From Ignavibacteriales bacterium (lineage in GTDB: Bacteria > Bacteroidota > Ignavibacteria > UBA10030), in contig JACPSI010000042.1 in NCBI GenBank assembly GCA_016193365.1, forward strand, positions 25,126 through 89,125: a DNA stretch of 64,000 nucleotides. Reading direction: 5' to 3'. Shown in pieces: positions 10,685 to 58,871 of the stretch (within the stretch, counting starts at the first letter, position 1; every line of letters starts with the position of its first letter). The notes under the pieces were generated by a model. That model was not told the DNA's origin. It saw only the letters and a program-made list of their open reading frames with translations, and ran no database searches. The translations under genes and the position numbers were made by a program.

Positions 10685-11585
10685 AGCGGAAATCTACGTT
10701 GAGAGTTCGGTAGGAAACTTTGGCAATAAGCGGCGGGCGGCGCTTAAACTGGTTCTTTCGGACAAGCAGTCTTACTTTTTTCACAAACTCTTTCGAAAAC
10801 CCCATATTCAATAACTCGTCGTCGGAGCGGCGCTCATCAATCATTTGAAAAAGGAGCTGGTCAACCTCGCGATAGGAAAACCCCAGCTCGCCTTCATCCG
10901 TCTGTCCGGACCACAAGTCGGCGGTCGGCTTTTTGTCAACGATTCTTTTCGGCACACCGAGCGACTCTGAGATTTGCCATACTTGAGTTTTATAAAGATC
11001 GCCCAACGGGTTGATAGCACACGCCGTATCCCCGAAAAGCGTCCCGTAGCCAAGAAGTAATTCGGTCTTGTTACTCGTTCCAATAACAAGGGCTTTCTCT
11101 CGTGCAGAGATATCATAGAGCACGATCATCCGAACACGAGCCATGATGTTTCCCCGTCGGACCTTATCCGTCGCCTTGTGTTTGTCACAGTACGCATCCA
11201 CCATCGCTGATATATCAACGGTTTCCGATTTGATGCCCAGTTCACGCACAACGAGCTCAGCGTCCTGGACGCTTTGGGGCAAACCTGTTCTGTACGGAAG
11301 GATTACGGCGTGCGTGTTTGTTTTGCCCAGCGCTTTTGCCATCAGGTAAGCTGAAACGGCCGAGTCAACGCCTCCCGACAGGCCAATCACCCCCCTGGAA
11401 AAGCCGGCATTTCCTGTCTCGTCTTTGATGAATTGGACGAGAAGGTTCGTCACCGTTTCCGCATTGAGTTTCAGCGCTTCCTTGTGGTCGACTCGGGCAG
11501 TTTCCATATTCGTCATGTGTAGAAGCCTGCCTTCTACCCCGTCCAACGTGATAGAAGGCAGGCTTTCTGACAGGTCATTCTCCAT
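10662..11585 (-). CDS. nadE: NH3-dependent NAD+ synthetase
   Basis: 307 aa. PP-loop GLSGGVDSAVSAYLMAKALG. Confidence 0.9.
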   Translation of the reverse strand: MENDLSESLPSITLDGVEGRLLHMTNMETARVDHKEALKLNAETVTNLLVQFIKDETGNAGFSRGVIGLSGGVDSAVSAYLMAKALGKTNTHAVILPYRTGLPQSVQDAELVVRELGIKSETVDISAMVDAYCDKHKATDKVRRGNIMARVRMIVLYDISAREKALVIGTSNKTELLLGYGTLFGDTACAINPLGDLYKTQVWQISESLGVPKRIVDKKPTADLWSGQTDEGELGFSYREVDQLLFQMIDERRSDDELLNMGFSKEFVKKVRLLVRKNQFKRRPPLIAKVSYRTLNVDFRYVRDWGI

Positions 11586-12999
11586 TCATCATTTCTTTCA
11601 GAGCCTTGCGGATGATGCTGAACCCCTCATCCACTTCCTCCTTCTTAAGGTTGAGAGGTGGACGAAAGCGGATCGAATGATCTCCACAACCTATGAGGAT
11701 CAGCCCAGCCTCATACGCTTTTTGCTTCAAAAGGTCCCTGCTCTGGGAAGATTCAAGATCGATCGCGCAGAATAGTCCTCTTCCGCGCGCATTTGAGACC
11801 AGATCGGGAAAATCTTGTTCCAGCGCCTGCAACTGGCGCAACAGGTGTTCGCCTACGACTCTAGCATTTTCCACAAGCCCGTCTTCTTCGATAATCTCGA
11901 GAATCTTTGTAAAGCGAACCATGTCGACCAGGTTTCCGCCAAAGGTTGAATTGATCCGGCTTGGTTTGTGGAAGACGTTTTCGAGAACATCGTCGATTCT
12001 GGTACTGCACATGAACCCGCAAATTTGAGTCTTCTTCCCGAAGGTCAAGATGTCCGGCTTTACAAAGTGCTCATAGGCCCAGAACTTCCCGGTAATGCCG
12101 ACGCCCGTTTGGACTTCGTCAAAAATGAGGAGAATTTCATTTTCGTCACAGACAGTCCGCAGTTCAGCGAGAAATTCCTTGCGAAAATGGTTGTCGCCGC
12201 CTTCGCCCTGAATCGGTTCGATGATCAATGCGGCGATATCATCCGGGTTGTTGATGATGGCGCGCTTGATTTGCTCAATGGCAAGCGCTTCTTCCTTCTC
12301 CGCTTGCTCAAGGCGTGCGTCATTCAAAGGGAAGTGGATGGTCGGATTGTGGATGCGAGGCCAGCGGAATTTAGGATAGTAGTTGGTCTTCGTCGGGTCG
12401 GTATTCGTCATGGAGAGCGTATACCCGCTTCGGCCGTGGAACGACCTCCGGAAATGTATCACCTGACGCCCGCACTCTTCTGTGTATCCTTTGACGAAGT
12501 TTTTTCTCACTTTCCAGTCAAACGCAGTTTTGATGGCATTCTCGTTTGCCAACGCACCACCATCGACGAAAAACAAATACTGAAAGTGGTCAGGTTTCGC
12601 GATCCGGGCAAACGTTTCCACGAATTCTGCCATTTCCACTGTGTATGCGTCGGAGTTCGACGGCTTATTCACAGCCGTTCTACCAAGTTTTTCCAGAAAC
12701 TCCGGCGTCACCATTTTTGGATGATTCAGGCCGATGGATCCAGAGGCAAAAAAAGTGAAGAAATCGAGGTAGCGCTTGTTGTACCGTGAATCGTACAAAT
12801 ACGCGCCCTGGCTTCGTCGGAGGTCGACAACAAGGTCGAATCCGTCGACGAGCATGTGATCGGACAGTGTTGAATGGACTTCGGTTGGAAGAACCCTGAC
12901 GGAAGTTTTTGTCGTGGGTTTTTCGTTTACGGCTTTATTTCTGGAACCGTTGGATTTGGACTTGGAAATATCGGCAAAGTCTATTGTTTTCTGAGACAT
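11575..12999 (-). CDS. lat: Class-III aminotransferase, L-lysine 6-transaminase-like
   Basis: 474 aa. PLP class III fold (FFVDGGALANENAIKTAFDW...LLIFDEVQTGVGITGKFWAYEH...TFGKK), with the length and N-terminal region typical of lysine epsilon-aminotransferase. Confidence 0.78.
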   Translation of the reverse strand: MSQKTIDFADISKSKSNGSRNKAVNEKPTTKTSVRVLPTEVHSTLSDHMLVDGFDLVVDLRRSQGAYLYDSRYNKRYLDFFTFFASGSIGLNHPKMVTPEFLEKLGRTAVNKPSNSDAYTVEMAEFVETFARIAKPDHFQYLFFVDGGALANENAIKTAFDWKVRKNFVKGYTEECGRQVIHFRRSFHGRSGYTLSMTNTDPTKTNYYPKFRWPRIHNPTIHFPLNDARLEQAEKEEALAIEQIKRAIINNPDDIAALIIEPIQGEGGDNHFRKEFLAELRTVCDENEILLIFDEVQTGVGITGKFWAYEHFVKPDILTFGKKTQICGFMCSTRIDDVLENVFHKPSRINSTFGGNLVDMVRFTKILEIIEEDGLVENARVVGEHLLRQLQALEQDFPDLVSNARGRGLFCAIDLESSQSRDLLKQKAYEAGLILIGCGDHSIRFRPPLNLKKEEVDEGFSIIRKALKEMMNGE

Positions 13000-46929: not shown

Positions 46930-47634
46930 TCATTTACTTGACATCCACTGGTGTGTCATTCGAGCTAGATCACTCAGGACATCCCCATCCGTTTTTCCCG
47001 AGCTTTTCAGCACATGAAACGAATGGTCCGCGCCGTCGATAACATGTAGCGTTGCGAATTTTCCCAGTTTGTCCACTACAGGCTTCAACAGCGACATCTC
47101 CGCAAAATCGTCTCTCGTGCCCTGCAGAAACAACATCGGCACCGTAACTCTTGAGAGATGTTCTGCCCGCTCAATCGAAGGCTTGCCAGGCGGGTGCAGA
47201 GGGAATCCGAGGAAAACGATTCCACGCACATGAGGCAGCGGCTCCTCAGCTGCGGCGCTTGAGGTCATCCTTCCGCCAAAAGATTTCCCTCCTGCAAACA
47301 ACGGAAGTCCCGGTGCCAGCTTTGCCGCTGTTTCAACAGCTGAGCGAACTGTCGCATAAATAACCGGTTTTGGATCGGGACGTTTGCCTCCCTGCTCCAT
47401 GTAAGGAAACTGGTAACGGAATGTGCCGATTCCATGTTCTGCCAGTTTATGTGATATGGCCTCGAGGAATTTCTGCCGCATACCGGCTCCCGCGCCGTGC
47501 GCGAGGACGAGAAGGGCCTTGGCGTTGTCGGGGAGCATGAGGATTGCGCTGACGGTGCCAACAGATTTGGAGGCAATAAAAGACGTGTTGGTGATTTCAG
47601 TTGAAAGCATGTCGGAAAGTAAGAAGAAATCCAA
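46930..47634 (-). CDS. Alpha/beta-hydrolase-fold protein (COG3571/KANL3-like predicted hydrolase)
   Basis: 234 aa. LLVLAHGAGAGM, nucleophile-elbow-like GGKSFGG, and a C-terminal DH motif. Confidence 0.72.
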   Translation of the reverse strand: MDFFLLSDMLSTEITNTSFIASKSVGTVSAILMLPDNAKALLVLAHGAGAGMRQKFLEAISHKLAEHGIGTFRYQFPYMEQGGKRPDPKPVIYATVRSAVETAAKLAPGLPLFAGGKSFGGRMTSSAAAEEPLPHVRGIVFLGFPLHPPGKPSIERAEHLSRVTVPMLFLQGTRDDFAEMSLLKPVVDKLGKFATLHVIDGADHSFHVLKSSGKTDGDVLSDLARMTHQWMSSK

Positions 47635-47669
47635 CGAAGTCGAAGATGAGTAATTGACACACCCCTACA

Positions 47670-47779
47670 CCCCTCTCTCAACGCTCATTCCCACACACGA
47701 GAGGGGACTTTTTAGAGCTAAGGAAAAACGAGCGTAGGAATTCCCCTCTGTGTGATGGAATGTGTACAGGAGAGAGGGG
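47670..47779. repeat. Pair of ~37-bp hairpin-forming units in mutually inverted orientation
   Basis: cccctctctcaacgctcattcccacacacgagagggg (47670-47706) and cccctctgtgtgatggaatgtgtacaggagagagggg (47743-47779). The reverse complement of the second aligns with the first. Each has 7-8 bp terminal stems, cccctctc/gagagggg. Confidence 0.45.
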
Positions 47780-47831
47780 ATAAAGGGGTGTGTGCTTTGT
47801 CTTCACCCCGAAATCTCGGTGCAACTAGATT

Positions 47832-47928
47832 GTCATTCTGAGAGAAGCCCCGAAGGGGCGGAGCGAAGAATCTGATTCCAGGTATTAATCAGATTCTTCG
47901 TCTCGCATAAGCGCTCGACTCAGAATGA
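47832..47928. repeat. Copy B: ~97-nt element with 11-bp terminal inverted repeats enclosing two internal hairpins (candidate MITE/REP-like element or structured RNA)
   Basis: gtcattctgag ... ctcagaatgac terminal inverted repeats. Internal hairpins are gccccgaaggggc and cgaagaatctgatt-N-aatcagattcttcg. It is homologous to 44846-44912. Confidence 0.5.
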
Positions 47929-48017
47929 CATACTATTTGTGCACCTCGATTAAAGTCCCGCGGAATATGCTCCACGCACAAACCCGTCGATTTCGACCCC
48001 GCCCCACATCCGCGATC

Positions 48018-48212
48018 TTACTTGCCTTTGCTCAACCAAAGCGAAAGAAAAAGACGATTCATCCCGAGCGGAGACGAGGGATGGTTTTCGTTAAACTCGT
48101 TTAGCCGCATCAGCATTGCGCTGACGTTTCCGGAGGATTTGGAGGCGAGGAAGGTCGTGTTTGTTATTTTGGGTGATGACATGGTTGTTCTCTGTCCGTA
48201 GGGACACGGCAT
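48018..48212 (-). pseudogene. Decayed N-terminal fragment of an alpha/beta-hydrolase paralog
   Basis: The 64-aa ORF MPCPYGQRTTMSSPKITNTTFLASKSSGNVSAMLMRLNEFNENHPSSPLGMNRLFL aligns with the N-terminus of the 46930-47634 hydrolase (MLSTEITNTSFIASKSVGTVSAILMLPDNAKALLVLAHGAGAGMRQKFL), then stops. Confidence 0.5.
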
Positions 48213-48225
48213 GCCGTGTCCCTAC
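48198..48225. promoter_or_regulatory. 28-bp perfect palindrome upstream of ligD (candidate operator)
   Basis: gtagggacacggcatgccgtgtccctac is a perfect two-fold symmetric site 74 nt upstream of the chosen ligD start. No U-tract follows on either strand. Confidence 0.45.
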
Positions 48226-48298
48226 AAAGCGTAACCCCACAATAACAAACAATTCCAACAAAGCAAATCGGCGCCATTCTCATTATATTTGCAATCCA

Positions 48299-50623
48299 AT
48301 GGCGCGCACATCCCAATACGTCAAGGTTGGCAAACGAACTGTCGAACTCTCGAATCTCAAAAAAATCCTCTTTGCGGATGACGAGATCCTGAAGGCTGAG
48401 TTAATCCAGTTTTACCTCAAACTGGCTCCTACCATCCTCGCACATATCAAAGGCCGTCCCCTTTCCGTAGTCCGCTATCCGGATGGTGTCGGCGGGGATT
48501 CGTTTTTCCAAAAAAACCGTCCCGACTGGGCTCCTGCCTGGATGGACCATGCCGAGTTGGGCGACAAGGAAAAAGGCAAAACCATCGACTACATGATTGC
48601 CACCGAGGAGGCCTCGCTAGTCTTTCTGGCAAACCTTGCATGCATTGAACTGCACCAGATGCATTCGCGATCGCCGAATTTCGACAAGCCGGATTATTTT
48701 GTTGTCGATCTCGACCCGCCGGAGAGTTTTCCGTTTTCCAAAATCGTCGGCATCGCGTTCGAATTCAAGGAACACCTCGAATCGTTCGGCTATCATCCAT
48801 TTGTGAAAACGACGGGTAAGAAGGGGCTGCATATCGTCTCGCCGCTCGAACCTAAGTGGAGTTTCGACGAGGTCTTTGAAGCAGCAAAAGCCATCGCCCA
48901 GCCGTTCGTCGACAGCCACAAATCGACAACGACGCTGCACATCAAAAAAGAGTACCGCAAGGACAAGATGCTGATCGACATCTACCGCAACCGCACGTTT
49001 CAAACAATCATTTCTCCGTATAGTGTACGCGGAAGCAGAGGAGCTCCGGTTTCGACTCCATTGAATTGGGAAGAACTCGAACATTTGAAATCGCCAGCCG
49101 AGTTGAATCTGGAAACCGTTCCCGAACGAGTCATTGCAAATGGGGACCCGTGGGAAGCTATCGGCGCTTATGCAACCAGTTTGCACACCGACCGCAAATC
49201 CAAACGGCCAAAACCTCTTGAAAAAGAGAAAGCTGTCGAGTCTCTCAAAACATATGACAAGAAAAGGAGCTTTAACAAGACGCCCGAACCCGGCCCAAAA
49301 GTTCCCGCGGGAAAGGGCAACTCTTTTGTTGTGCATCGTCACCACGCATCGCGACTTCATTACGATTTGCGGCTGGAAAAAGGAGGCACACTGAAATCGT
49401 GGGCTGTCCCCAAAGGACTCCCGCCGCGTCCGGGCATTAAACGGCTTGCCGTCAACGTGGAAGACCATCCTATGGATTATCTCACCTTCGAAGGAAAGAT
49501 TCCGAAAGGCGAATACGGCGGAGGTGACGTGTGGGTGTTTGCGCTGGGCAAATATGTCATTACAAAAGAAAAGAAAGACGGATTCTATTTTCGACTTCAG
49601 AGCAAAGAGATCAACGCGGAGTATCGCACATTCCCGACGGACGGCAAGAACTGGCTGCTGGAACGACTCGACAACCCGCAAATCGATTTTCTGAGAGACA
49701 ATGTTGAGTATATGCTTTCAGAAAGCCGCGAAAAGGTGCCTACTTCAGGCGATTATCTTTATGAAGTGAAGTGGGACGGAATTCGCGCAATGATCTCGCT
49801 GGATGAAGGAGTCGTGAAAATCCGCAGCCGCAATAACAAAGACATCACCAAGAGTTTTCCCGAATTGCTCATCCCCGACAAAGCATTCCGTGCGACCAAT
49901 GCGCTTATCGATTGCGAAATAGTTTGCCTGGATAAGTCGGGAAAACCCGTGTTTAAAGATGTCATCAACCGCATGCACCAAACGACTGAAGGAGCGATTG
50001 CCCGCGCGAGAGCAAAATTCCCCGCAGTCTGTTATGTTTTCGACTGCCTCTATCTCGACGGCCGCGCTATTGTGAACGAACCGCTCACACGGCGGCGTGT
50101 CTGGCTTAAGGATGTCGTTCGCCCGGATACGCCGTATCGAGTCAGCGAGGTCGTTGAAGAAGGCGAGGATCTTTTTGAGGCTGCAAAGCAAATGGGGCTT
50201 GAAGGGATCATGGCAAAAGAGAGGAACAGTCAGTACGTCGTCGGCAAGCGCAGCTCTTACTGGCTGAAAGTCAAAACCAGGCAAACGGCGGATTGCGTGA
50301 TCATCGGCTACACGAAAGGGAAAGGAAGCCGCGACTCTGCTTTTGGTGCGCTCCACCTTGCTCAGAAGAAGGACGGCGACCTTGTGTACGTCGGCAAGGT
50401 CGGTACCGGCTTCGATGACCGGATGTTGAAATCGATTTACCTGGAGCTCAAAAAGTTTCGGAAAATCAAAAAACCCATCAAGCAAAAAACCCTCGACGAT
50501 GTTGCGACCATCTGGATCGAACCAAAGCTGTTTTGTGAAGTCCAATACGCCTCCCTGACCAAAGACAAGATGCTTCGCGAGCCTGTGTTTTTGAGGTTGC
50601 GGCCGGATTTGTCCAACGAGTGA
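48299..50623 (+). CDS. ligD: ATP-dependent DNA ligase LigD, three-domain (polymerase/primase - phosphoesterase - ligase)
   Basis: Pol domain (FFQKNRPDW, VVDLDPPE, KTTGKKGLHIV), PE domain (FVVHRHHASRLHYDLRLE), and ligase domain (EVKWDGIR KxDG motif, then OB fold). The start was chosen at MARTSQYVKV (ATG 48299). The longest ORF from 48161 uses an alternative start and overlaps the palindrome. Confidence 0.9.
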   Translation: MARTSQYVKVGKRTVELSNLKKILFADDEILKAELIQFYLKLAPTILAHIKGRPLSVVRYPDGVGGDSFFQKNRPDWAPAWMDHAELGDKEKGKTIDYMIATEEASLVFLANLACIELHQMHSRSPNFDKPDYFVVDLDPPESFPFSKIVGIAFEFKEHLESFGYHPFVKTTGKKGLHIVSPLEPKWSFDEVFEAAKAIAQPFVDSHKSTTTLHIKKEYRKDKMLIDIYRNRTFQTIISPYSVRGSRGAPVSTPLNWEELEHLKSPAELNLETVPERVIANGDPWEAIGAYATSLHTDRKSKRPKPLEKEKAVESLKTYDKKRSFNKTPEPGPKVPAGKGNSFVVHRHHASRLHYDLRLEKGGTLKSWAVPKGLPPRPGIKRLAVNVEDHPMDYLTFEGKIPKGEYGGGDVWVFALGKYVITKEKKDGFYFRLQSKEINAEYRTFPTDGKNWLLERLDNPQIDFLRDNVEYMLSESREKVPTSGDYLYEVKWDGIRAMISLDEGVVKIRSRNNKDITKSFPELLIPDKAFRATNALIDCEIVCLDKSGKPVFKDVINRMHQTTEGAIARARAKFPAVCYVFDCLYLDGRAIVNEPLTRRRVWLKDVVRPDTPYRVSEVVEEGEDLFEAAKQMGLEGIMAKERNSQYVVGKRSSYWLKVKTRQTADCVIIGYTKGKGSRDSAFGALHLAQKKDGDLVYVGKVGTGFDDRMLKSIYLELKKFRKIKKPIKQKTLDDVATIWIEPKLFCEVQYASLTKDKMLREPVFLRLRPDLSNE

Positions 50624-50820
50624 ATAACGGACACAGAACTCGGTGTGAGGGCGATGGTAATTCCTAGTAGAACTCACCCCTCGAGTAAAAAGCAAGTAAA
50701 TGAACCCTCTCCTAAAGCTCTGAAAAAACTTGGTGAGGAGAAGGGAGTCGCAGTAACTTTTGACCAGTTGTGCAATTTCAAAAGTTGTTGAATTCAAATC
50801 ATTTTCACAACCCCAGCGGT

Positions 50821-50849
50821 GGCGGGAATACTTCCCGCCCTACATTTTG
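50821..50849 (+). terminator. Possible terminator after ligD
   Basis: ggcgggaa-tac-ttcccgcc hairpin followed by a weak T run, ctacatttt. It lies in a 330-nt ligD-permease spacer. Confidence 0.35.
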
Positions 50850-50954
50850 GACAGCCTCTTCCTGAATCCACATGAGGGTGAGGTCTGAATTACCGTAGCC
50901 CTTAGCTTCTCCAACACGCCAGCCATTGGTAGAGCGATTTGAAAAAAGAAGATA

Positions 50955-52271
50955 ATGGAAACTGAACAACGAAAAAAAGTAGGCCTCATCACAGCCACCT
51001 CACTCGTCGTGGGGAACATGATTGGCTCCGGGCTCTTCATGCTTCCCGCTGCGTTGGCAGCATACGGAGGCATCAGTTTGGTGGGATGGGTTGTTTCCGG
51101 TCTCGGAGCGATGTCGCTTGCAATTGTCTATGGCTGGCTTGCAAAGCTCCATCCAAAAACCACCGGCGGGCCGTACGCATACACCTACATCGGGATGGGC
51201 GACTTTGCGGCTTTTCTCGTTGCGTGGGGATACTGGATTTCTGTGTGGTGCGCGAATGCCGCGATCACCGTTGCGTTTGTCAGCTACTTGAGCGCATTCG
51301 TTCCTGCTCTTGCCACCGACCCGTCGTTTGCAATTGGGACCGGCCTCGCTGCAATTTGGCTTCTCACGTGGGTCAACACGCTGGGAATCCGCGAAGCGGG
51401 CGCTGTTCAAGTTCTCACAACGATACTCAAACTTGTTCCACTTCTGCTCATCGCCGTTGCGGGCCTTTTCTATATTCGCTTTGAGCATTTTACACCGTTT
51501 AACCTGAGCACCGAATCCTCCCTCGGTGCCGTCACCAGCACAACAACGCTGACGCTGTTTGCGTATCTCGGACTTGAGTGCGCGACGATTCCGTCGGAAA
51601 ACATCGCGAACGCGCAAAAAACTGTCGCGAGAGCAACTCTTCTTGGTACTTATCTTACAACGGCGGTTTATATCCTGAGCACGATTGCGGTCATGGGACT
51701 GATTCCGCCGGATCTGCTGCGTACTTCGCAAGCACCCTTCGCTGATGCCGCCGCGTCGATCTGGGGAGAACCGGCAAGATACCTGGTTGCCGCAGCAGCT
51801 GTCATTGCAACTTTTGGAGCGCTCAACGGTTGGATTCTTGTACAGGGGCAGGTCCCTTTTGCGGCCGCCCGCGACAGGCTGTTCCCGGCTGTGTTCAGCA
51901 AAGAAAACAAAAAAGGCGTTCCCGGCATCGGGATCGTCATTTCCAGCGTACTGGTCTCCCTCCTTATGGGCATGAACTTCACCAATACTCTTGCCGACAC
52001 ATACAAGTACATGATCTTGCTGTCGACACTCACCGTGCTCGTACCTTATGTTCTTTCGATGGCCTCTTATGCCATCATCATTACAAAGGACAAAGCGCCG
52101 AACAGAAGCGTGTGGCCAAGGCTCTTCGTTGCTTTTCTTGGTTTTCTTTTTTCCCTCTGGGCAATCGTCGGGTCGGGCCGGGAAATTGTCTATTGGGGTT
52201 TCATCATGCTCATTGCAGGTATCCCTTTTTATGTCGTCATGAAATTCAAAAAAGAAAAAAATTCTTTGTGA
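50955..52271 (+). CDS. APC-superfamily amino acid permease (basic amino acid/polyamine antiporter-like)
   Basis: 438 aa, 12 TM. N-terminal GLITATSLVVGNMIGSGLFMLPA consensus of APC transporters. Confidence 0.85.
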   Translation: METEQRKKVGLITATSLVVGNMIGSGLFMLPAALAAYGGISLVGWVVSGLGAMSLAIVYGWLAKLHPKTTGGPYAYTYIGMGDFAAFLVAWGYWISVWCANAAITVAFVSYLSAFVPALATDPSFAIGTGLAAIWLLTWVNTLGIREAGAVQVLTTILKLVPLLLIAVAGLFYIRFEHFTPFNLSTESSLGAVTSTTTLTLFAYLGLECATIPSENIANAQKTVARATLLGTYLTTAVYILSTIAVMGLIPPDLLRTSQAPFADAAASIWGEPARYLVAAAAVIATFGALNGWILVQGQVPFAAARDRLFPAVFSKENKKGVPGIGIVISSVLVSLLMGMNFTNTLADTYKYMILLSTLTVLVPYVLSMASYAIIITKDKAPNRSVWPRLFVAFLGFLFSLWAIVGSGREIVYWGFIMLIAGIPFYVVMKFKKEKNSL

Positions 52272-53152
52272 AAACGACCTGCCATTCCGAATTTGGCAAA
52301 ATCAAAACGGTCGTTATCAAAAGAGCGACGAACGCATTTGTCAGTGAACGACTTCTTGAGGCTCAGTGGCGCGACCTTCATTTTCTGGAAAAACCTGATT
52401 TGGCTCAATCAGCAAAGGAATTCGACAGCTTCGAAACGATCCTGAAGACAAACGAAGCAACATTACTTTATCTCCCGCGTGACGAGAGTGTGACCATCGA
52501 TTCCATTTATTGCCGCGATGCTGTCATCACCACCGACCATGGAATGATCCTTTGCAATATGGGAAAGGCCTCCAGAATTCATGAGCCGGAAGCTTTGCAA
52601 CGGTTCCTTGAAGAACATCAATTTGAAGTGTTGGGACGCATTCAGGCTCCGGGAACCCTCGAGGGGGGAGATTGTGCCTGGATTAATGAGAACACGCTGG
52701 CGGTCGGTTTATCATCAAGAACAAATGCAGAGGGGATAAGACAATTGAAACGAATGCTGACTCCGTTTAATATTGATGTTCTTCTCGTTTCCCTGCCGCA
52801 TTACAAAGGCCTGCAGGATGTGTTTCACCTCATGTCGGTGTTCAGCCCGGTCGACACCGACCTTGCCGTTGTCTACCCGCCATTGATGCCCTTGGATTTT
52901 CGCAACGAGTTGCTTCGGAGGGATTTTCGGCTTATCGAAGTGCCTGAACGCGAGTTCGAATCCATGGGATGCAATGTTCTGGCAATCGCGCCGCGCAGAT
53001 GCGTAATGATCAATGAAAATCCGGCAACAAAAGCAGCGCTTGAGAAGGCAGGGTGTGAAGTGTTTGAATACGCAGGCCGTGAAATAAGCCTCAAAGGTGG
53101 CGGCGGGCCGACATGCCTGACGAGACCCATTGACAGATACGTGCATGAGTAG
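52268..53152 (+). CDS. Amidinotransferase-superfamily hydrolase (dimethylarginine dimethylaminohydrolase / arginine-deiminase / citrulline-hydrolase-like)
   Basis: About 294 aa. C-terminal nucleophile context GGGGPTCLTRPI is typical of the guanidino-group-modifying fold. The likely start is GTG at 52268, overlapping the permease stop (gtgA/tGA). The ORF-track N-terminal extension from 51830 overlaps the permease out of frame. Confidence 0.68.
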   Translation: MKTTCHSEFGKIKTVVIKRATNAFVSERLLEAQWRDLHFLEKPDLAQSAKEFDSFETILKTNEATLLYLPRDESVTIDSIYCRDAVITTDHGMILCNMGKASRIHEPEALQRFLEEHQFEVLGRIQAPGTLEGGDCAWINENTLAVGLSSRTNAEGIRQLKRMLTPFNIDVLLVSLPHYKGLQDVFHLMSVFSPVDTDLAVVYPPLMPLDFRNELLRRDFRLIEVPEREFESMGCNVLAIAPRRCVMINENPATKAALEKAGCEVFEYAGREISLKGGGGPTCLTRPIDRYVHE

Positions 53153-53200
53153 AAATAAACAAGAAAAGTAACGATATTAAGCAAAACCATCGGAGGAATC

Positions 53201-54055
53201 ATGAGAGCAATTTGGAAAGGCTATATTCGTTTTTCACTCGTCACCATCCCTGTGCGCGTGTACAACGCCGTCGACACGGAGCAGAAGATCAGCTTCAACC
53301 AGCTCCATAAAGAAGACAACGGCCCGATCGGGTACGAGAAGAAATGCAAAAAGTGCGGAAAGGCGGTACCCAACGAAGAGATCGTAAAGGGATACCAGTA
53401 CGAACCGGACCAGTATGCCATCGTTGAAAAAGATGACCTCGAAAAAGTGAAACTGAAAAGCACAAAAGTCATCGAAATCGAGGGCTTTGTAAACGCAAAG
53501 GAAGTCAGTCCGATGCTGTATGAATCTCCTTACTTCGCCGGCCCGGATGGAGCTGTCGCGGGAAAGGCGTTTGGCTTGTTGAGTCAGACGTTGAAGGATT
53601 CCGGAAAACTCGGCATAGGAAAAGTCGTTTTGCGCGATCGCGAAGATGTTGTCCTCATAGCTCCGATGGAAGGCGGGATCGTTCTCTACAAGCTGCGTTA
53701 TCCAAGCGAAGTTCGCAATATGAAGGAAGTGCCTCAACTTGACGGACAGGTTGTTGATAAGAATCAGCTGAAACTTGCACGGAGTCTTGTCGATTCGATG
53801 GCGACAACGATGAAAAAGCTGGACATGAAGGACAAATACCATGATGCTCTCAAAGAAATGATCGAAGCCAAGATCGAAGGCAAGGAAGTCGTGACCGTCG
53901 AGGAGGAAGTGAAGCCGGTTGTCGATATCATGTCCGCTCTGAAGCAAAGCATCGACCAGGCAAAATCACACCGCAAGCCGATGGAAAAAGCGAAAGGCAC
54001 GAAGAAAAAAGAAGCGATGAAACCCACAAAGGTGCGAAAGGCAAAAGCGGTTTAA
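53201..54055 (+). CDS. ku: Ku protein (NHEJ DNA end-binding)
   Basis: 284 aa. MRAIWKGYIRFSLVTIPVRVYNAV Ku core start, with a lysine-rich basic C-terminal tail. Confidence 0.9.
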   Translation: MRAIWKGYIRFSLVTIPVRVYNAVDTEQKISFNQLHKEDNGPIGYEKKCKKCGKAVPNEEIVKGYQYEPDQYAIVEKDDLEKVKLKSTKVIEIEGFVNAKEVSPMLYESPYFAGPDGAVAGKAFGLLSQTLKDSGKLGIGKVVLRDREDVVLIAPMEGGIVLYKLRYPSEVRNMKEVPQLDGQVVDKNQLKLARSLVDSMATTMKKLDMKDKYHDALKEMIEAKIEGKEVVTVEEEVKPVVDIMSALKQSIDQAKSHRKPMEKAKGTKKKEAMKPTKVRKAKAV

Positions 54056-54077
54056 GGGACGAATACTCTTTTCAATC

Positions 54078-55304
54078 TTGTTTGCCCCCTTGTCCAGATT
54101 CCTCAGATTCTCGCTGGTTCTCGCCGTCGCGGCTTTCTGTGCGATTGCGCAGCAGTCGGACCTCAAGCCAACCGTCATCCTCATCTCCTTCGACGGTTTT
54201 CGACCGGACTACATTGACAGAACGTCTTCTCCGAATTTTCATCGTTTCGTTACCGAGGGAGTTCGCGCAAAAGCAATGTACTCGTGTTTCCCGTCCAAGA
54301 CTTTTCCTAATCACTACTCGATTGTCACCGGACTTTACCCTGAGCATCACGGTATTGTGTCCAACAATTTTTTTGACCCCGAACTCAATGAAACATACAA
54401 CGCGTTTCGTGACATTGCGAAGGAAACGCGCTGGTACGGAGGAGAGCCAATCTGGGTGACGGCAGAGTCGCAAGGACAGATCGCCGCATCTTTCTTTTGG
54501 GTCGGCTCAGAAGTTTCTATCAAAGGGCGGCAGCCTTCGCGATGGAAAAAATACGACCATAACTTTCCCAATGCTCAGCGTGTGGACACGGTACTCTCCT
54601 GGCTTGACCTTCCGGCTTCGATCCGGCCGTCTTGCATAACCCTGTATTTCGCTCTCCTCGACGACGCCGGACACCGTTCCGGCCCTGATTCACCCAACAC
54701 GATGTTTGTCGTTGAACAAGCGGATTCCGTTGTCGGCCGCTTGATTGCCGGGCTCGAGAATCGAAAGCTGCTTGACAAGGTAAACATCGTCATTGTTTCC
54801 GACCACGGGATGTCTCAGCTGAGTCCTGACCGCGTTGTGTACCTCGAGGATTACATCGACTCCACCGACTCACGCGTTGTGGATTGGTCCCCGGTTGCGG
54901 CGCTCATTCCGGCAAGCGGAAGGGAAGAAAAGGTCTATGACGCATTGAAGAATGCCCATCCAAATCTCAAGTTGTACCGGAAAAATGAGATTCCAGAACT
55001 ATGGCATTACCGTGACAATCCCCGGATCAGTCAGCTTCTCGCAGTAGCCGATGACGGCTGGACAATTGCACGAAGACGCAGTCAGAGGGGCGAGCGGAGG
55101 TTATCGGGTGGAAACCACGGCTACGATCCGCGTCTGCCTTCAATGCACGCGTTGTTTCTTGCCAGAGGGCCCGTTTTTAAACAAAGATTTGTCGCGGAGC
55201 CGTTCGAGAACATACACGTTTACAGCCTTCTCTGCAAGATTCTCTCACTTACAACGGCTCCCAACGACGGGGATCTGAGACACATTATGAATATCTTACG
55301 ATAG
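54078..55304 (+). CDS. Ectonucleotide pyrophosphatase/phosphodiesterase (alkaline-phosphatase superfamily)
   Basis: 408 aa. Signal peptide; ISFDGFRPDY, TFPNHYSIVTGLYPEHHGIV, and DDAGH, SDHGM metal-ligand motifs. Confidence 0.8.
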   Translation: MFAPLSRFLRFSLVLAVAAFCAIAQQSDLKPTVILISFDGFRPDYIDRTSSPNFHRFVTEGVRAKAMYSCFPSKTFPNHYSIVTGLYPEHHGIVSNNFFDPELNETYNAFRDIAKETRWYGGEPIWVTAESQGQIAASFFWVGSEVSIKGRQPSRWKKYDHNFPNAQRVDTVLSWLDLPASIRPSCITLYFALLDDAGHRSGPDSPNTMFVVEQADSVVGRLIAGLENRKLLDKVNIVIVSDHGMSQLSPDRVVYLEDYIDSTDSRVVDWSPVAALIPASGREEKVYDALKNAHPNLKLYRKNEIPELWHYRDNPRISQLLAVADDGWTIARRRSQRGERRLSGGNHGYDPRLPSMHALFLARGPVFKQRFVAEPFENIHVYSLLCKILSLTTAPNDGDLRHIMNILR

Positions 55305-55305
55305 A

Positions 55306-55917
55306 ATGGCAAAGATACTTCCTTTTACGCAACAGGTTTCTGCCAAGCTCGGATTCGAGCGCGTCAAGAAAAGAAAAAAACCTGAGAAGGATCAGCTCAA
55401 TCTTTTTTCGCCGGGGTCACGCCGCATTCTGAATTTGCCAAGCAATCTGAGTCCCTTCGAAGAAGCGCTTCTTTTAGATGAGCGCGGAGACCCGAAGGCT
55501 GCAGACGCGTACGGAAAGGCAATTGCGGAAGAGGATTCGGTTGCCGACGCGTACTGTAACCTCGGAATTCTGGAATCACAAGCCGGCAGGACAACAAAAG
55601 CGTTTGACAGCTTTACCAAAGCATTGAAGCATGACCCGCGACATTTTGAGTCGCATTACAACCTGGGGAATCTCTATCTGGAGGTTGGAGATTTCAGACT
55701 CTCTCGAACACATTATCAAATAGCCGCCGAAATCGAACCCGCGTTTCCTAATGTGTATTTCAATCTTGGCCTTGTCCACGCTATTAACGAGGATTTTGGA
55801 GCCGCGGTCGAGGCACTGGACAAGTTCAAAGAACTCGTACCCAAGGACGAAGGAAACAAAGCCGACGGCCTTCTGTTGAGCCTGAAGCAGTCGCTCGTGC
55901 ACAAAGGAAAAAACTAA
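55306..55917 (+). CDS. Tetratricopeptide-repeat protein
   Basis: 203 aa with 3-4 TPR units (AYCNLGILESQAG..., HYNLGNLYLEVGD..., VYFNLGLVHA...). Confidence 0.7.
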   Translation: MAKILPFTQQVSAKLGFERVKKRKKPEKDQLNLFSPGSRRILNLPSNLSPFEEALLLDERGDPKAADAYGKAIAEEDSVADAYCNLGILESQAGRTTKAFDSFTKALKHDPRHFESHYNLGNLYLEVGDFRLSRTHYQIAAEIEPAFPNVYFNLGLVHAINEDFGAAVEALDKFKELVPKDEGNKADGLLLSLKQSLVHKGKN

Positions 55918-56163
55918 CCGGTAAACCCGACAGGTCTCAATCGAATTTCCGAAGGGCCATCAAAGGAGTTGTCGGTGTAGGAATTGGTGAGCTTGATGGA
56001 AAACCTTGCGTGAAAGTGCTTGTGGATAGGCGTACACGCCGGTTAGTCAAGCAAATACCAAAATCCATCGACGGATATCTTGTCCTCATCGAAGAAACGG
56101 GTGAGTTCAAAACGCGTAAAAGAATTCTTCCCTATTAAGAAGCCCACGCAGTCCACAAAAAAA

Positions 56164-56190
56164 GGCGTCGCTGAGACGCCTTTTTTATTT
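56164..56190. terminator. Bidirectional rho-independent terminator
   Basis: aaaaaaa-ggcgtc-gctga-gacgcc-ttttttattt is a GC stem flanked by an A7 and a T6 run. It abuts the stop of the minus-strand 56199-58871 gene and lies downstream of the plus-strand TPR gene. Confidence 0.75.
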
Positions 56191-56198
56191 CAGCCCTT

Positions 56199-58871
56199 TC
56201 AGCGACCCAGCCAGTATGACAGTTTGACGAGGAAGATATTGTCCGATGGCTCGCGGAGAAGTTCACCCGAATCGCGGCCAAATTCGAAATCCGATACATA
56301 TCCCACATGACTTCGCAAATGTTGCCAAACGACGAAGATTGTCGACCCCGGAAGGTATTCCCATCGCAGGACAAGGTTAGCCCGCACTGAACGGAAATTG
56401 AAGTCATCCTGTCCGAAGTTGTTCCCAAAGAAGAACGCGTTCGCCGGTCCGCCTCCGTCGGGATCGACCGTATACACCCGTGTCGCTGCATCATAGGTCA
56501 CCGTACCCTTATCCCGGCCGTACGCCGCGAAGTCATACGTCCCCGGTTGCAAAAATTCTTTGAAGAAATAGAAATCGCGCGCCTGAATGAACGGCTGGAT
56601 GACAAACTGCAGCGAGAGGTCCGGCGTGAAAGCCCAGTTCACTCGCGTGTTGAGCGACAAATTAGTGAGCGTTACGTCGGCGAACACGTATCGACGCCCA
56701 TATGTCGCGGCCGCCAATGAATCTGCCACACTCATAATATATTGGTCGGTGTCGCGTTCAAAGCCGAGTTGCGGTGTGAACTGGATTTGGATTGCCGGCG
56801 TCGGACGGAGGTTCAAGTTAAACGACACATACTTGTCGTATTCTCCAGAATAGTCCTCCCGGTACGAAACGCTCATGCCAACGACGACTTTATCGCGGCT
56901 GTCCGATTGAACGCTGAAACCGGTTCCGTATTGACCGACCACGGTCATGAGCGGACCGCCGCGTGTAAGTTTGTCGCTGAGGACATCGGGCCCCCAATAC
57001 GCATAACCGCTGAAGTTCCAGAAGCTCAAGCTGTTTGCATACCCCCCCACATTGTAGATTTCAAACATCCGGTCGCCGCCAAACGTCCACGCGTGGTTAG
57101 AGTAGCCGTAGATGCCGTAGTTACGGAAAGCTTGCCCGGGAGTGCGATCCTGATACTCTGCATATGTTGAGAATGCGCGGCGGTCTGCGAGGCTTGCAAA
57201 ACCCATGTCGTTGAGCTCGAGACCCGGAGAGCGTTCCTGATACGTCAGCGAGCCAATCCAGTTGCCCCCTCCGACTTTCATGAGAGTCGCCTCGCCTGCA
57301 AAGCCGCTGAGAGATGTTCTGTTCGCGTCAACTCCCAGATAATCGGCGTCGGGGCGTTGATAGTATCGTGCAGACGACCTCTGCGTTCGTTCAATGACGG
57401 CCTTATCACCGGCAACGCGGGACCCGGCGACAAATCCTCCGAAGAGCCAGTTTCGTTCGCCCCACCGATGTTCAAAATCGATGCCGCCCGTCGTCGCCGA
57501 CGAATGGAGGAGAGAATTGAACGCGGGATCGCTGAGGTTGCGATTCACAGATGTGATCAGACCGCCGACAAACGATTGTCCGTCGAAATCTTTCTTCACT
57601 CTGGTGACAAGATAATTTGTCAGAGGCTCCACCTCGACTGTTTGCTCGAGTCCTGAGCCGTCGATGTAGCGCGCAGATTCGCGTTGCGTCACCGCATTGA
57701 GTACTCCGACCGACAACCCCGACGATGTTTTCCCGCTGAGTTTTGCCGCGCCGAGGATCGTTGTCTGGTCTGGCACATCGACGTACGCTGCGCCGATTCC
57801 GCGCTGAGGCTGGCGGCCAATCCTCCTCGAATAAAAGTACTGACCTCCTCCGTAGCTGTTGTAGTTTCGCGTTCGCCCGAATGAAAAAATCTCCGACCCT
57901 TCAACAAAAAACGGGCGACGTTCGGGAAAAAATATTTCAAATGCTGACAGGTTCACCACAGCCGGGTCGACCTCGACCTGGCCAAAATCCGGGTTGACGG
58001 TGCCGCTGAGCGTAAAATCCGAAGTGACACCGTATTTGAAATCTGCACCGGTGTTGCCGAAGAAATCATTGGCCCGATAATACGGACTACCCGCAACGCG
58101 CTCCGGGGAACGTTTCACACGCGAAACAACGTATGGCTGAATTTCGAACCTCGCCGGCGCGCTTAAGCCCCTGATTCCCGTCAACGTTCCAAACCGTCCC
58201 ACGTAACTTCCGACGTCACCGGGCACGGGGCTCCAGAAGGAAAACTCTCCGTTGCGTGCGATGCGCCGTTGAAAATTAACACCCCATGTAAGGTCGTCTG
58301 TCGACTCGCTAAACCGTAATTGTGAAAACGGAATCCGAAACTCCGCCGTCCATCCGATTTCGTCCCTTGAGACCGAGGACTCCCACACGGCATCCCAACT
58401 GACGTCTTCCTGCGTGTCATTCGAAATCAAGATGTCTTTTTTCACTCCGGCCGGGTTCACGGCAAAGGAAAATGCGGTGCGACGGTCGAAGTAACTGTCG
58501 ATTTGCACGTAGAACCAGTCGCTCAATACATCGCCGTCGCGGCGAAACAACTCGCCGACGATGGAGTCCGGATGGTCGTATATGCGGGCGGCGACATAGA
58601 GTGCATCGTTGTCATAGAGAACGCGCACATCTGTAGCCTGAGATGCCGGTGCCCCCTCGTTGGGCCTCATTTGGACAAAATTGTTCGCAGCTGAGGTGTT
58701 CTTCCAGGCTTCTTCGTCGATCATGCCGTCAATGGTTACCGCGGTTCCCTCCAATCGGGAAGCCTGGTGAGACTTCGCAGAGTTTAAAGAAACAGAGACT
58801 TCGCCATTTTGACCGAAGGCTTGAATCGAACAAATACCTAGAAACAACAGTACTTCCTGGGCTCTTTGCAC
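56199..58871 (-). CDS. DUF5916/CBM9-like domain secreted or outer-membrane protein
   Basis: 890 aa. Signal peptide, N-terminal CBM9-like region (TIDGMIDEEAWKNTSAANNFVQMRPNEGAPASQATDVRVLYDNDALYVA), and a long beta-rich remainder. Confidence 0.68.
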   Translation of the reverse strand: MQRAQEVLLFLGICSIQAFGQNGEVSVSLNSAKSHQASRLEGTAVTIDGMIDEEAWKNTSAANNFVQMRPNEGAPASQATDVRVLYDNDALYVAARIYDHPDSIVGELFRRDGDVLSDWFYVQIDSYFDRRTAFSFAVNPAGVKKDILISNDTQEDVSWDAVWESSVSRDEIGWTAEFRIPFSQLRFSESTDDLTWGVNFQRRIARNGEFSFWSPVPGDVGSYVGRFGTLTGIRGLSAPARFEIQPYVVSRVKRSPERVAGSPYYRANDFFGNTGADFKYGVTSDFTLSGTVNPDFGQVEVDPAVVNLSAFEIFFPERRPFFVEGSEIFSFGRTRNYNSYGGGQYFYSRRIGRQPQRGIGAAYVDVPDQTTILGAAKLSGKTSSGLSVGVLNAVTQRESARYIDGSGLEQTVEVEPLTNYLVTRVKKDFDGQSFVGGLITSVNRNLSDPAFNSLLHSSATTGGIDFEHRWGERNWLFGGFVAGSRVAGDKAVIERTQRSSARYYQRPDADYLGVDANRTSLSGFAGEATLMKVGGGNWIGSLTYQERSPGLELNDMGFASLADRRAFSTYAEYQDRTPGQAFRNYGIYGYSNHAWTFGGDRMFEIYNVGGYANSLSFWNFSGYAYWGPDVLSDKLTRGGPLMTVVGQYGTGFSVQSDSRDKVVVGMSVSYREDYSGEYDKYVSFNLNLRPTPAIQIQFTPQLGFERDTDQYIMSVADSLAAATYGRRYVFADVTLTNLSLNTRVNWAFTPDLSLQFVIQPFIQARDFYFFKEFLQPGTYDFAAYGRDKGTVTYDAATRVYTVDPDGGGPANAFFFGNNFGQDDFNFRSVRANLVLRWEYLPGSTIFVVWQHLRSHVGYVSDFEFGRDSGELLREPSDNIFLVKLSYWLGR

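Follow-up and report, generated by a model that had tools for sequence, protein, structure and literature searches.

Conventional bacterial nonhomologous end joining (NHEJ), as described in Mycobacterium tuberculosis, Pseudomonas aeruginosa and Bacillus subtilis, combines Ku with a three-domain DNA ligase D (LigD). In a survey of bacteria with conventional NHEJ, 75% had ku and ligD no more than 10 kb apart, and 60% had them on one strand (PMC7719229). The window analyzed here, a stretch of 64,000 nucleotides (nt) from an Ignavibacteriales bacterium (assembly GCA_016193365.1, contig JACPSI010000042.1, positions 25,126 to 89,125 of the forward strand), likewise held Ku and a three-domain LigD; their genes were on one strand within 10 kb, that is, 'operonic' as defined in PMC7719229, and the window LigD had the same polymerase-phosphoesterase-ligase (Pol-PE-Lig) order as the mycobacterial enzyme. 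Unlike conventional NHEJ loci, however, the window had two unrelated genes between ligD and ku, encoding an APC-superfamily permease and a pentein-fold hydrolase (together, the cassette), and one past ku, encoding an ENPP/NPP-type phosphodiesterase (ENPP). This Ku subfamily also departed from conventional NHEJ in having a gene for a tetratricopeptide repeat (TPR) protein of ~203 aa immediately 3' of ku, which was present at 76 of 77 informative loci with a median gap of 101 nt. To our knowledge, the NHEJ model organisms have no TPR partner of Ku. The recurrent gene order in this Ku subfamily was ligD-ku-TPR, and the window held this three-gene module. Most probably, two insertions specific to this lineage brought genes of unrelated function into the module, and the adjacency of the cassette and ku is an accident kept by inertia, not functional coupling.

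Relatives of the window Ku were sought by scanning one genome per GTDB species, which returned 460; the best 80 of these were kept (the L loci), coming from 80 species-level genomes and being 57-97% identical to the window Ku. The closest among these best 80 were from metagenome-assembled genomes (MAGs) of Ignavibacteriales/Ignavibacteriaceae (L007, 97% identity; L008, 96% identity). Six window proteins were placed on the 80 Ku loci by tblastn, and genes were called from an open reading frame (ORF) map with Pfam and NCBIfam profile searches. These calls agreed with a first-pass annotation of the window: all genes it had described in the NHEJ locus were on the + strand, with the identities, spacings and GTG/TGA overlap that it had given. 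The TPR gene, which begins 1 nt past the ENPP stop, and the 331-nt spacer with a hairpin between ligD and the permease gene were absent from it. The locus reads as follows.

48299..50623, + strand: ligD, DNA ligase D, Pol-PE-Lig, 774 aa plus stop
50624..50954, + strand: ligD-permease spacer, 331 nt, with a terminator-like hairpin; upstream junction of the cassette
50955..52271, + strand: APC-superfamily permease, 438 aa; first gene of the cassette
52268..53152, + strand: pentein-fold hydrolase, 294 aa, GTG start; second gene of the cassette
53153..53200, + strand: ku leader, 48 nt, with promoter-like hexamers and a Shine-Dalgarno sequence
53201..54055, + strand: ku, bacterial Ku, 284 aa
54078..55304, + strand: ENPP/NPP-type phosphodiesterase, 408 aa
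55306..55917, + strand: Ku-linked TPR gene, 203 aa
56157..56190, no strand assigned: strong bidirectional intrinsic terminator (A-run, GGCGTC-GCTGA-GACGCC, TTTTTTATTT)

The Pol-PE-Lig assignment of ligD in the first-pass annotation stood, but its start did not. The maximal ORF begins with TTG at 48161, and the tblastn alignments of homologues begin at ATG 48299 as residue 1, so the gene was taken as 48299-50623. Ligase, polymerase (AEP) and phosphoesterase domains were found in one protein, with Pfam scores of 271.5 bits for LigD_Prim-Pol, 106.1 for LigD_N (phosphoesterase), 129.8 for DNA_ligase_A_M and 86.2 for DNA_ligase_A_C. The full-length model TIGR02776 scored 477.7 against a cutoff of 373.2, and the single-domain models TIGR02778 (227.1, cutoff 214.7), TIGR02777 (154.3, cutoff 144) and TIGR02779 (264.7, cutoff 227.75) were also passed. 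The ku product, with a TIGR02772 Ku_bact score of 282.7 (cutoff 150) and 158 bits for Pfam Ku, was a bacterial Ku. The hydrolase gene starts with a GTG (52268) that overlaps the permease stop (TGA, 52269-52271) as GTGA, so that the two genes are probably coupled in translation; 48 nt with a GGAGG Shine-Dalgarno sequence separated the hydrolase stop from ku, and 22 nt separated ku from the ENPP gene.

Across the 80 Ku loci, ligD was immediately 5' of ku, on the same strand and less than 600 nt away, in 41. It was within 10 kb but separated or inverted in 10, absent despite at least 3 kb of upstream sequence in 23, and its position could not be read in the remaining 6. The ku-TPR junction was almost never interrupted; the sole informative locus without the TPR gene was a Syntrophales contig (L077). 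The subfamily with this order spans Ignavibacteria, Bacteroidota, Verrucomicrobiota, Acidobacteriota and other phyla. In the nearest outgroups of the window's clade (L011-L014 and L018) the ligD-ku gap was 34-140 nt. In the sister locus L010 ligD was ~105 nt from ku, and in L009 the gap was 468 nt with a small membrane ORF; neither had the cassette there. The arrangement that the first-pass annotation had named as speaking against coupling, ku directly beside ligD in relatives, was thus common, with L010, L011-L014 and L018 among the 41. The same annotation had regarded an interrupted ligD-ku locus as unusual. That premise was weak, since 10 of the 51 linked loci had intervening or rearranged genes and ku and ligD lie within 10 kb of each other in only 75% of bacteria with conventional NHEJ (PMC7719229). 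Unrelated cargo between ligD and ku included a patatin/Omp85 protein with a SWIB-domain basic protein (L044), DinB (L015), DUF5615/PIN-like (L060), VIT1/rubrerythrin (L061) and acyl-CoA enzymes (acyl-CoA dehydrogenase/thiolase/enoyl-CoA hydratase-like ORFs; L066). L059 was also among the loci with cargo at this junction.

The cassette was rare at Ku loci and free-standing elsewhere. Besides the window, permease and hydrolase genes lay between ligD and ku only in L008; they were 5' of ku in L007 and L001, both truncated contigs, and 76 of the 80 Ku loci had no cassette. In a hydrolase-centred sample of 80 metagenome loci (57-63% identity, 6 kb inspected), the permease gene was immediately 5' of the hydrolase gene in 44 of the 50 loci with enough upstream sequence, and Ku, LigD, TPR or ENPP was found within 6 kb in none of the 80, showing that permease and hydrolase form a self-standing, tightly coupled two-gene cassette. 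At L002-L006 (hydrolase 62-64% identical) the permease gene was directly upstream, with M20, S9 and S10 peptidase genes and similar ones around it and no NHEJ gene, and at L004 the two genes overlapped by 4 nt. The hydrolase family (~292 aa) was large; at least 8000 clusters were scored in the family search, and the named ones were mostly from Bacteroidota, e.g., Cyclobacteriaceae. The closest homologue, P0003 (71% identity), was the hydrolase of L001, the sole other one found next to ku in look-ups. From the clade-limited cassette and the free-standing pair elsewhere it follows that the cassette came to lie beside ku most probably by an insertion accident and not through coupling. The chance insertion that the first-pass annotation had offered as an alternative is therefore the version favored by the comparative data.

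Apart from the window, L008 was the sole one of the 80 Ku loci with an ENPP gene separating ku from the TPR gene. L007 had none despite a Ku 97% identical to that of the window; its ku and TPR genes were 9 nt apart. The ENPP gene was thus inserted second, more recently than the cassette.

Synonymous (dS) and nonsynonymous (dN) substitution rates of the six genes were compared between the window and L008 by the Nei-Gojobori method. All six genes had a dS of 0.9-2.2. The dN/dS ratio was 0.024 for LigD, 0.022 for Ku and 0.019 for the TPR protein, vs 0.059 for the permease, 0.059 for ENPP and 0.185 for the hydrolase, and protein identity was 95-96% for the NHEJ genes vs 70-81% for the inserted ones. 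The similar dS and low dN/dS show that the inserted genes are as old as their neighbors in the window and L008 and under purifying selection, though with much weaker constraint. The identity difference is explained by that weaker constraint, and no recent transfer is needed. Horizontal replacement of alleles, considered for the hydrolase (70% identical between the window and L008 vs 96% for Ku), was rejected because dS was of similar size throughout and the hydrolases encoded beside ku were monophyletic. Their clade comprised the window, L008 (P0002), L007, L001 (P0003) and a short contig (P0004).

The strongest rival reading takes the permease-hydrolase pair and ku as one regulated operon, through which Ku (with ENPP and the TPR protein) would respond to arginine or guanidino supply, nitrogen or stationary phase. 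We consider it unlikely. The cassette, ku, ENPP and TPR genes are all on the same strand, permease and hydrolase overlap by GTGA, no more than 48 nt, free of terminator-like sites, separate the hydrolase gene from ku, and the cassette-ku order was retained in four related genomes despite a dS of ~1 or more, all of which would suit an operon. The association, however, was confined to one small clade (no NHEJ gene at the 80 other hydrolase loci, no cassette at 76 of 80 Ku loci), the sisters L009 and L010 lacked the cassette at ku, and the dN/dS of the inserted genes was 3-9 times that of the NHEJ genes. The spacer itself also spoke for separate control of ku. It is a conserved leader with TAGAAA (53150-53155), a 17-nt spacer, GATATT (53173-53178) and GGAGG; at the four cassette-bearing loci its identity to the window was 35-41 of 48 nt vs 13-24 of 33 nt in the adjoining 3' end of the hydrolase gene, and the GATATT element was also recognizable in cassette-less L009. 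In L008 the hydrolase-ku spacer was 230 nt long, with a ~20-bp hairpin past the hydrolase gene, a second hairpin and then the conserved leader. The first-pass annotation had looked to an independent promoter and terminator at this junction as evidence against coupling; the promoter-like leader was present, as were the strong hairpins of L008, but the window had no terminator there. Nothing in the comparison supported its suggestion that NHEJ expression could be tied to nitrogen status or stationary phase.

A TAnnTTTG-like element was found 40-50 nt 5' of ku in many distant loci, even where ligD was adjacent, which suggests that ku (with the TPR gene) usually has its own promoter. The window ku probably has one as well, as its leader indicates, and so the cassette need not drive it; read-through from the cassette into ku is possible because no terminator intervenes in the window. 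Many Ignavibacteria and Bacteroidota loci (L017, L020, L024, L025, L027, L043 and others) shared a pattern 40-90 nt 5' of ku, TGGAATAAGTCTGAGATT..TTGATA.ATTT, followed by GTTCTTTAACA just before the Shine-Dalgarno sequence; the window's clade lacked it. We take its TTGATA-containing element to be promoter-like, of the Bacteroidetes TAnnTTTG type, and the pattern suggests a conserved ku promoter or operator.

Elsewhere in the unit, ligD is probably transcribed on its own, since it is separated from the permease gene by the 331-nt spacer with a terminator-like hairpin (GGCGGGAATACTTCCCGCC and a T-rich tail, 50821-50839). Compared with L008, the ends of this spacer were conserved and its middle was rich in insertions and deletions; the hairpin was missing from L008. 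In a scan for sigma-70 promoters and terminators the counts were in line with those of shuffled controls (promoter-like 7 vs 6.0, terminator-like 12 vs 12.1), and only the hairpin at 50821-50839 stood out. A scan of 47500-56300 against Rfam (E<=1) gave sub-threshold chance matches only; neither a guanidine-type riboswitch nor one of another kind was found 5' of the permease gene. The ENPP and TPR genes are almost certainly co-transcribed with ku, because the gaps are only 22 nt and 1 nt. The terminator at 56157-56190 closes the + strand unit past the TPR gene and a 42-aa ORF, and also serves a convergent DUF5916 gene. This 42-aa ORF (GTG start, 56010-56138) lies 3' of the TPR gene, and its DNA was kept in L008 and L001 (70-72%).

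Several repeats were observed 5' of ligD. A perfect 28-bp palindrome (GTAGGGACACGGCA joined to TGCCGTGTCCCTAC, 48198-48225) is located 74 nt 5' of the ligD ATG and nested in a second inverted repeat (48158-48173 and 48236-48251); a role as operator is conceivable, as is one as structured leader. Farther upstream, two palindromic intergenic elements at 47822-47939 and 47657-47793 resembled miniature inverted-repeat transposable elements (MITEs) or repetitive extragenic palindromes (REPs). In the element at 47822-47939, which has no second copy in the window, terminal inverted repeats of 21 nt enclose a perfect stem of 14 nt. A copy of 74% identity was found between ku and the TPR gene in L010 (1036-1129).

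The order of events was read from a neighbor-joining (NJ) tree of Ku and the TPR protein, in which the group of the window, L008 and L007 was sister to that of L001, L009 and L010. In the most parsimonious history, the cassette would have been gained once in the ancestor of this six-genome clade and lost from, or absent in, the lineage of L009 and L010, and the ENPP gene would have been inserted later in the lineage of the window and L008. L001 groups with the cassette-less L009 and L010, which calls for one or more losses or for a second gain. This could be taken to mean that the cassette is ancestral at this position in a wider group of Ignavibacteria and that repeated deletions produced the ligD-ku adjacency. 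That is very improbable, however, as the cassette was missing from all outgroups examined (L011-L014, L018 and more than 60 further loci in many phyla), which have ligD beside ku or else cargo of an unrelated kind. The functional conclusion is the same whether the cassette was inserted once or was ancestral.

Some observations weigh against the insertion account or soften it. The relatives are all MAG contigs, and the absence of the cassette from L009 and L010 was read at the ku locus only. The ku leader hexamers match the sigma-70 consensus at only 8 of 12 positions; the scan found no terminator in the 48-nt hydrolase-ku spacer of the window. The insertion has been kept over a dS of ~1 or more in four of the six clade members, which fits inertia and would also fit some selective benefit. 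Nor was any trace of a mechanism found: 50955-53152 did not qualify as an insertion sequence, transposon or MITE. A repeat search found no target-site duplication, terminal inverted repeats or flanking direct repeats around the cassette or the ENPP gene, and there was no transposase, integrase or other mobile-element gene among the neighbors.

The protein encoded by the second insertion belongs to the ENPP/NPP type I phosphodiesterases (Phosphodiest PF01663, 333.2 bits, aligned over profile positions 1-342 of 342) and reached no NCBIfam equivalog. Its N-terminus, MFAPLSRFLRFSLVLAVAAFCAIA/QQ, combines a basic n-region with a hydrophobic core and an AIA/QQ site, and is predicted to be a Sec-type signal peptide of about residues 1-24. 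With this Sec-like N-terminus, the enzyme most likely resides outside the cytoplasm and has no part in DNA repair. ENPP-family enzymes hydrolyze nucleotide phosphodiester and pyrophosphate bonds, a chemistry that, with the tight packing of the gene (22 nt past ku, its stop 1 nt before the TPR start and, in L008, abutting the TPR ATG), might suggest an end-processing enzyme recruited to NHEJ for blocked DNA ends, but this is highly doubtful given the predicted location outside the cytoplasm, the presence of the gene in only 2 of 80 Ku loci and its absence from the 9-nt ku-TPR gap of L007, a dN/dS of 0.059 vs ~0.02 for the NHEJ genes, and the phosphoesterase domain that LigD itself carries.

The closest described counterparts of the cassette are the gene clusters of the arginine deiminase (ADI) pathway, in which arcA is accompanied by an arginine/ornithine exchanger, ArcD or ArcE (PMC5300872). 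The window cassette resembled these in pairing an APC antiporter-like permease with a pentein-fold guanidino hydrolase that matches the Pfam ADI model. It differed from them in that the hydrolase, at 294 aa, is of DDAH size and matched the ADI model in part (best stretch 125-261 of 377), the permease fell under the ArcD cutoff, and the locus lacks ornithine carbamoyltransferase and carbamate kinase. Neither of these two enzymes (arcB/arcC) was found among the window neighbors. The equivalog scores and the length of 294 aa against an ADI profile of ~408 positions likewise placed the hydrolase outside the ArcA family. The window cassette is not an ADI pathway.

The permease belongs to the APC superfamily (AA_permease_2 180.9 bits vs a threshold of 27). 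Its closest family was that of the basic amino acid/polyamine antiporters (APA), but with 340 against the TIGR00905 cutoff of 409.05 it stayed outside that family, and it was also below the equivalog cutoffs of AdiC (332.8 vs 574), PotE (249.7 vs 409) and ArcD (229.8 vs 591). The hydrolase exceeded the Pfam gathering scores of ADI (101.1 bits) and DDAH_eukar (66.5 bits), and its start is backed by 292-aa homologues covering 99-100% of the query. It remained below the ADI equivalogs (TIGR01078 96.6 vs 489.1; PRK01388 106.7 vs 414) and the dimethylargininase equivalogs (NF045660 81.6 vs 340; NF045658 75.1 vs 450; NF045659 19.6 vs 300), and so is not assigned to DDAH. Residues D78, E132, D135, H187 and C283 were invariant in 28 homologues. 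The AlphaFold2 (AF2) model had a mean pLDDT of 83.5 and matched DDAH, ADI, NnhA and AGAT structures at a probability of 1.00 in Foldseek; P. aeruginosa DDAH (1h70 and 3rhy, TM 0.85-0.87) came first, followed by arginine deiminases, NnhA, DDAH-1 and AGAT. The fold, the Cys-His pair and the acidic residues place the hydrolase in the guanidino-group-modifying (pentein-fold) superfamily. The superfamily assignment implied by the first-pass annotation was thus upheld, with the ADI and DDAH_eukar Pfam matches, but the narrower ADI, DDAH, CtlX and amidinotransferase labels were not. A CtlX or amidinotransferase identity was rejected: no NCBIfam match was obtained at E<=0.001, and AGAT and SxtG were only distant fold matches.

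P. aeruginosa DDAH (1h70, 3rhy, 3bpb) was the best solved-structure match to the hydrolase in both sequence (E 2e-19) and fold, and its catalytic His162 and Cys249 align with H187 and C283, which are kept. Identity was only ~25%, however, with scores under the DDAH equivalog cutoffs, and the window hydrolase belongs to a family of 292-aa proteins, widespread in Bacteroidota, that is paired with a permease. The P. aeruginosa enzyme is not known to be paired with one. Judged from these family and fold assignments, the cassette most likely takes up arginine or a related guanidino compound and hydrolyzes it to a ureido product and ammonia or an amine. With that role, permease and hydrolase would be a nutrient-scavenging module, which would fit the peptidase-rich neighborhoods of the pair elsewhere.

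The conserved Ku-TPR pairing is the more interesting, if incidental, outcome of the comparison. The TPR protein (~203 aa) has an N-terminus predicted to be disordered, with a basic patch and the motif QLNLF (residues 30-34, nt 55393-55407), followed by a solenoid of ~4 TPRs. In the AF2 model, residues 1-40 had a pLDDT <50 and residues 45-203 >90. The family was conserved over its full length, with the consensus M..IL.F....K.GF.RV.KR....GQLNLF....LP...SPFEEALLLDERGD followed by about four TPRs. Q30 and F34 did not vary among 56 homologues, and conservation was 90% or higher at L31 and L33. A regular-expression search of the first 70 residues found a QLxLF-type motif in 70 of 78 Ku-linked TPR proteins, and at least 4 of the remaining 8 hold one further along, those 4 being Acidobacteria variants. 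In these Acidobacteriota versions (L047, L053, L066 and L080; 263-272 aa; genes 3' of ku at ~11200-11760 in locus coordinates), a MerR-type helix-turn-helix (HTH) was observed between the conserved N-terminal segment and GQLNLF (MerR_1 50.3 and 43.5 bits vs 21.6).

The linkage also held from the TPR side, where ku was immediately 5' in three of three independent look-ups, including one 4-nt ku/TPR overlap and one complete 5.7-Mb genome with the order ligD-ku-TPR. At a dN/dS of 0.019, the TPR protein was under constraint on par with that of Ku and LigD. Databases annotate it only as generic TPR or TadD. A search for representatives was dominated by giant multi-TPR proteins, about 30 of the best 150 being full-length members of ~200-280 aa. 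Foldseek with the TPR model gave no functional clue, all matches being to OGT or to TPRs of generic or designed type, and a literature search found no paper tying the TPR protein or the sliding clamp to Ku or LigD.

The consensus for binding of the beta sliding clamp is QL[S/D]LF, and UmuC carries 357-QLNLF-361 (PMC3716654). The TPR protein resembles such clamp binders (UmuC, PMC3716654) in having the identical QLNLF in a tail predicted to be disordered, and so appears to carry a clamp-binding motif of the QL[S/D]LF type; it differs from them in that the motif is N-terminal and sits on a TPR scaffold, where the others are polymerases, ligases or mismatch-repair enzymes. A functional link between the TPR protein and Ku is suggested by the gene order, the constraint and the motif together. 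We therefore propose, tentatively and at somewhat less than even confidence, that the TPR protein, and not the cassette or ENPP, is the conserved partner of Ku and that NHEJ in FCB, PVC, Acidobacteriota and related lineages has in it a third component not described before. The TPR scaffold would bind a peptide of Ku or LigD, the disordered N-terminal QLNLF would tether the complex to the beta sliding clamp, and the added MerR-type HTH of the Acidobacteria variants could bind DNA. By analogy, such an accessory factor would parallel the eukaryotic Ku-binding adaptors in role.

An alpha/beta hydrolase gene (Abhydrolase_11, 183.8 bits) was observed at 46930-47634 on the - strand of the window, divergent from ligD. 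Homologues with 42-65% identity were near the NHEJ module in 19 of the 80 loci, in several phyla, either 5' of ligD or just 3' of the TPR gene, and this may be a fourth recurrently linked gene of the module.

On the insertion account, the interrupted NHEJ cluster of the window would be a case of ordinary genome shuffling, in which a metabolic cassette and a secreted phosphodiesterase landed in one small clade, an explanation that guards against over-reading gene adjacency. The literature describes bacterial NHEJ as a minimal system of two proteins. Should the TPR protein act together with Ku and LigD, this system would gain an accessory factor, one for which a connection to the sliding clamp is suggested.

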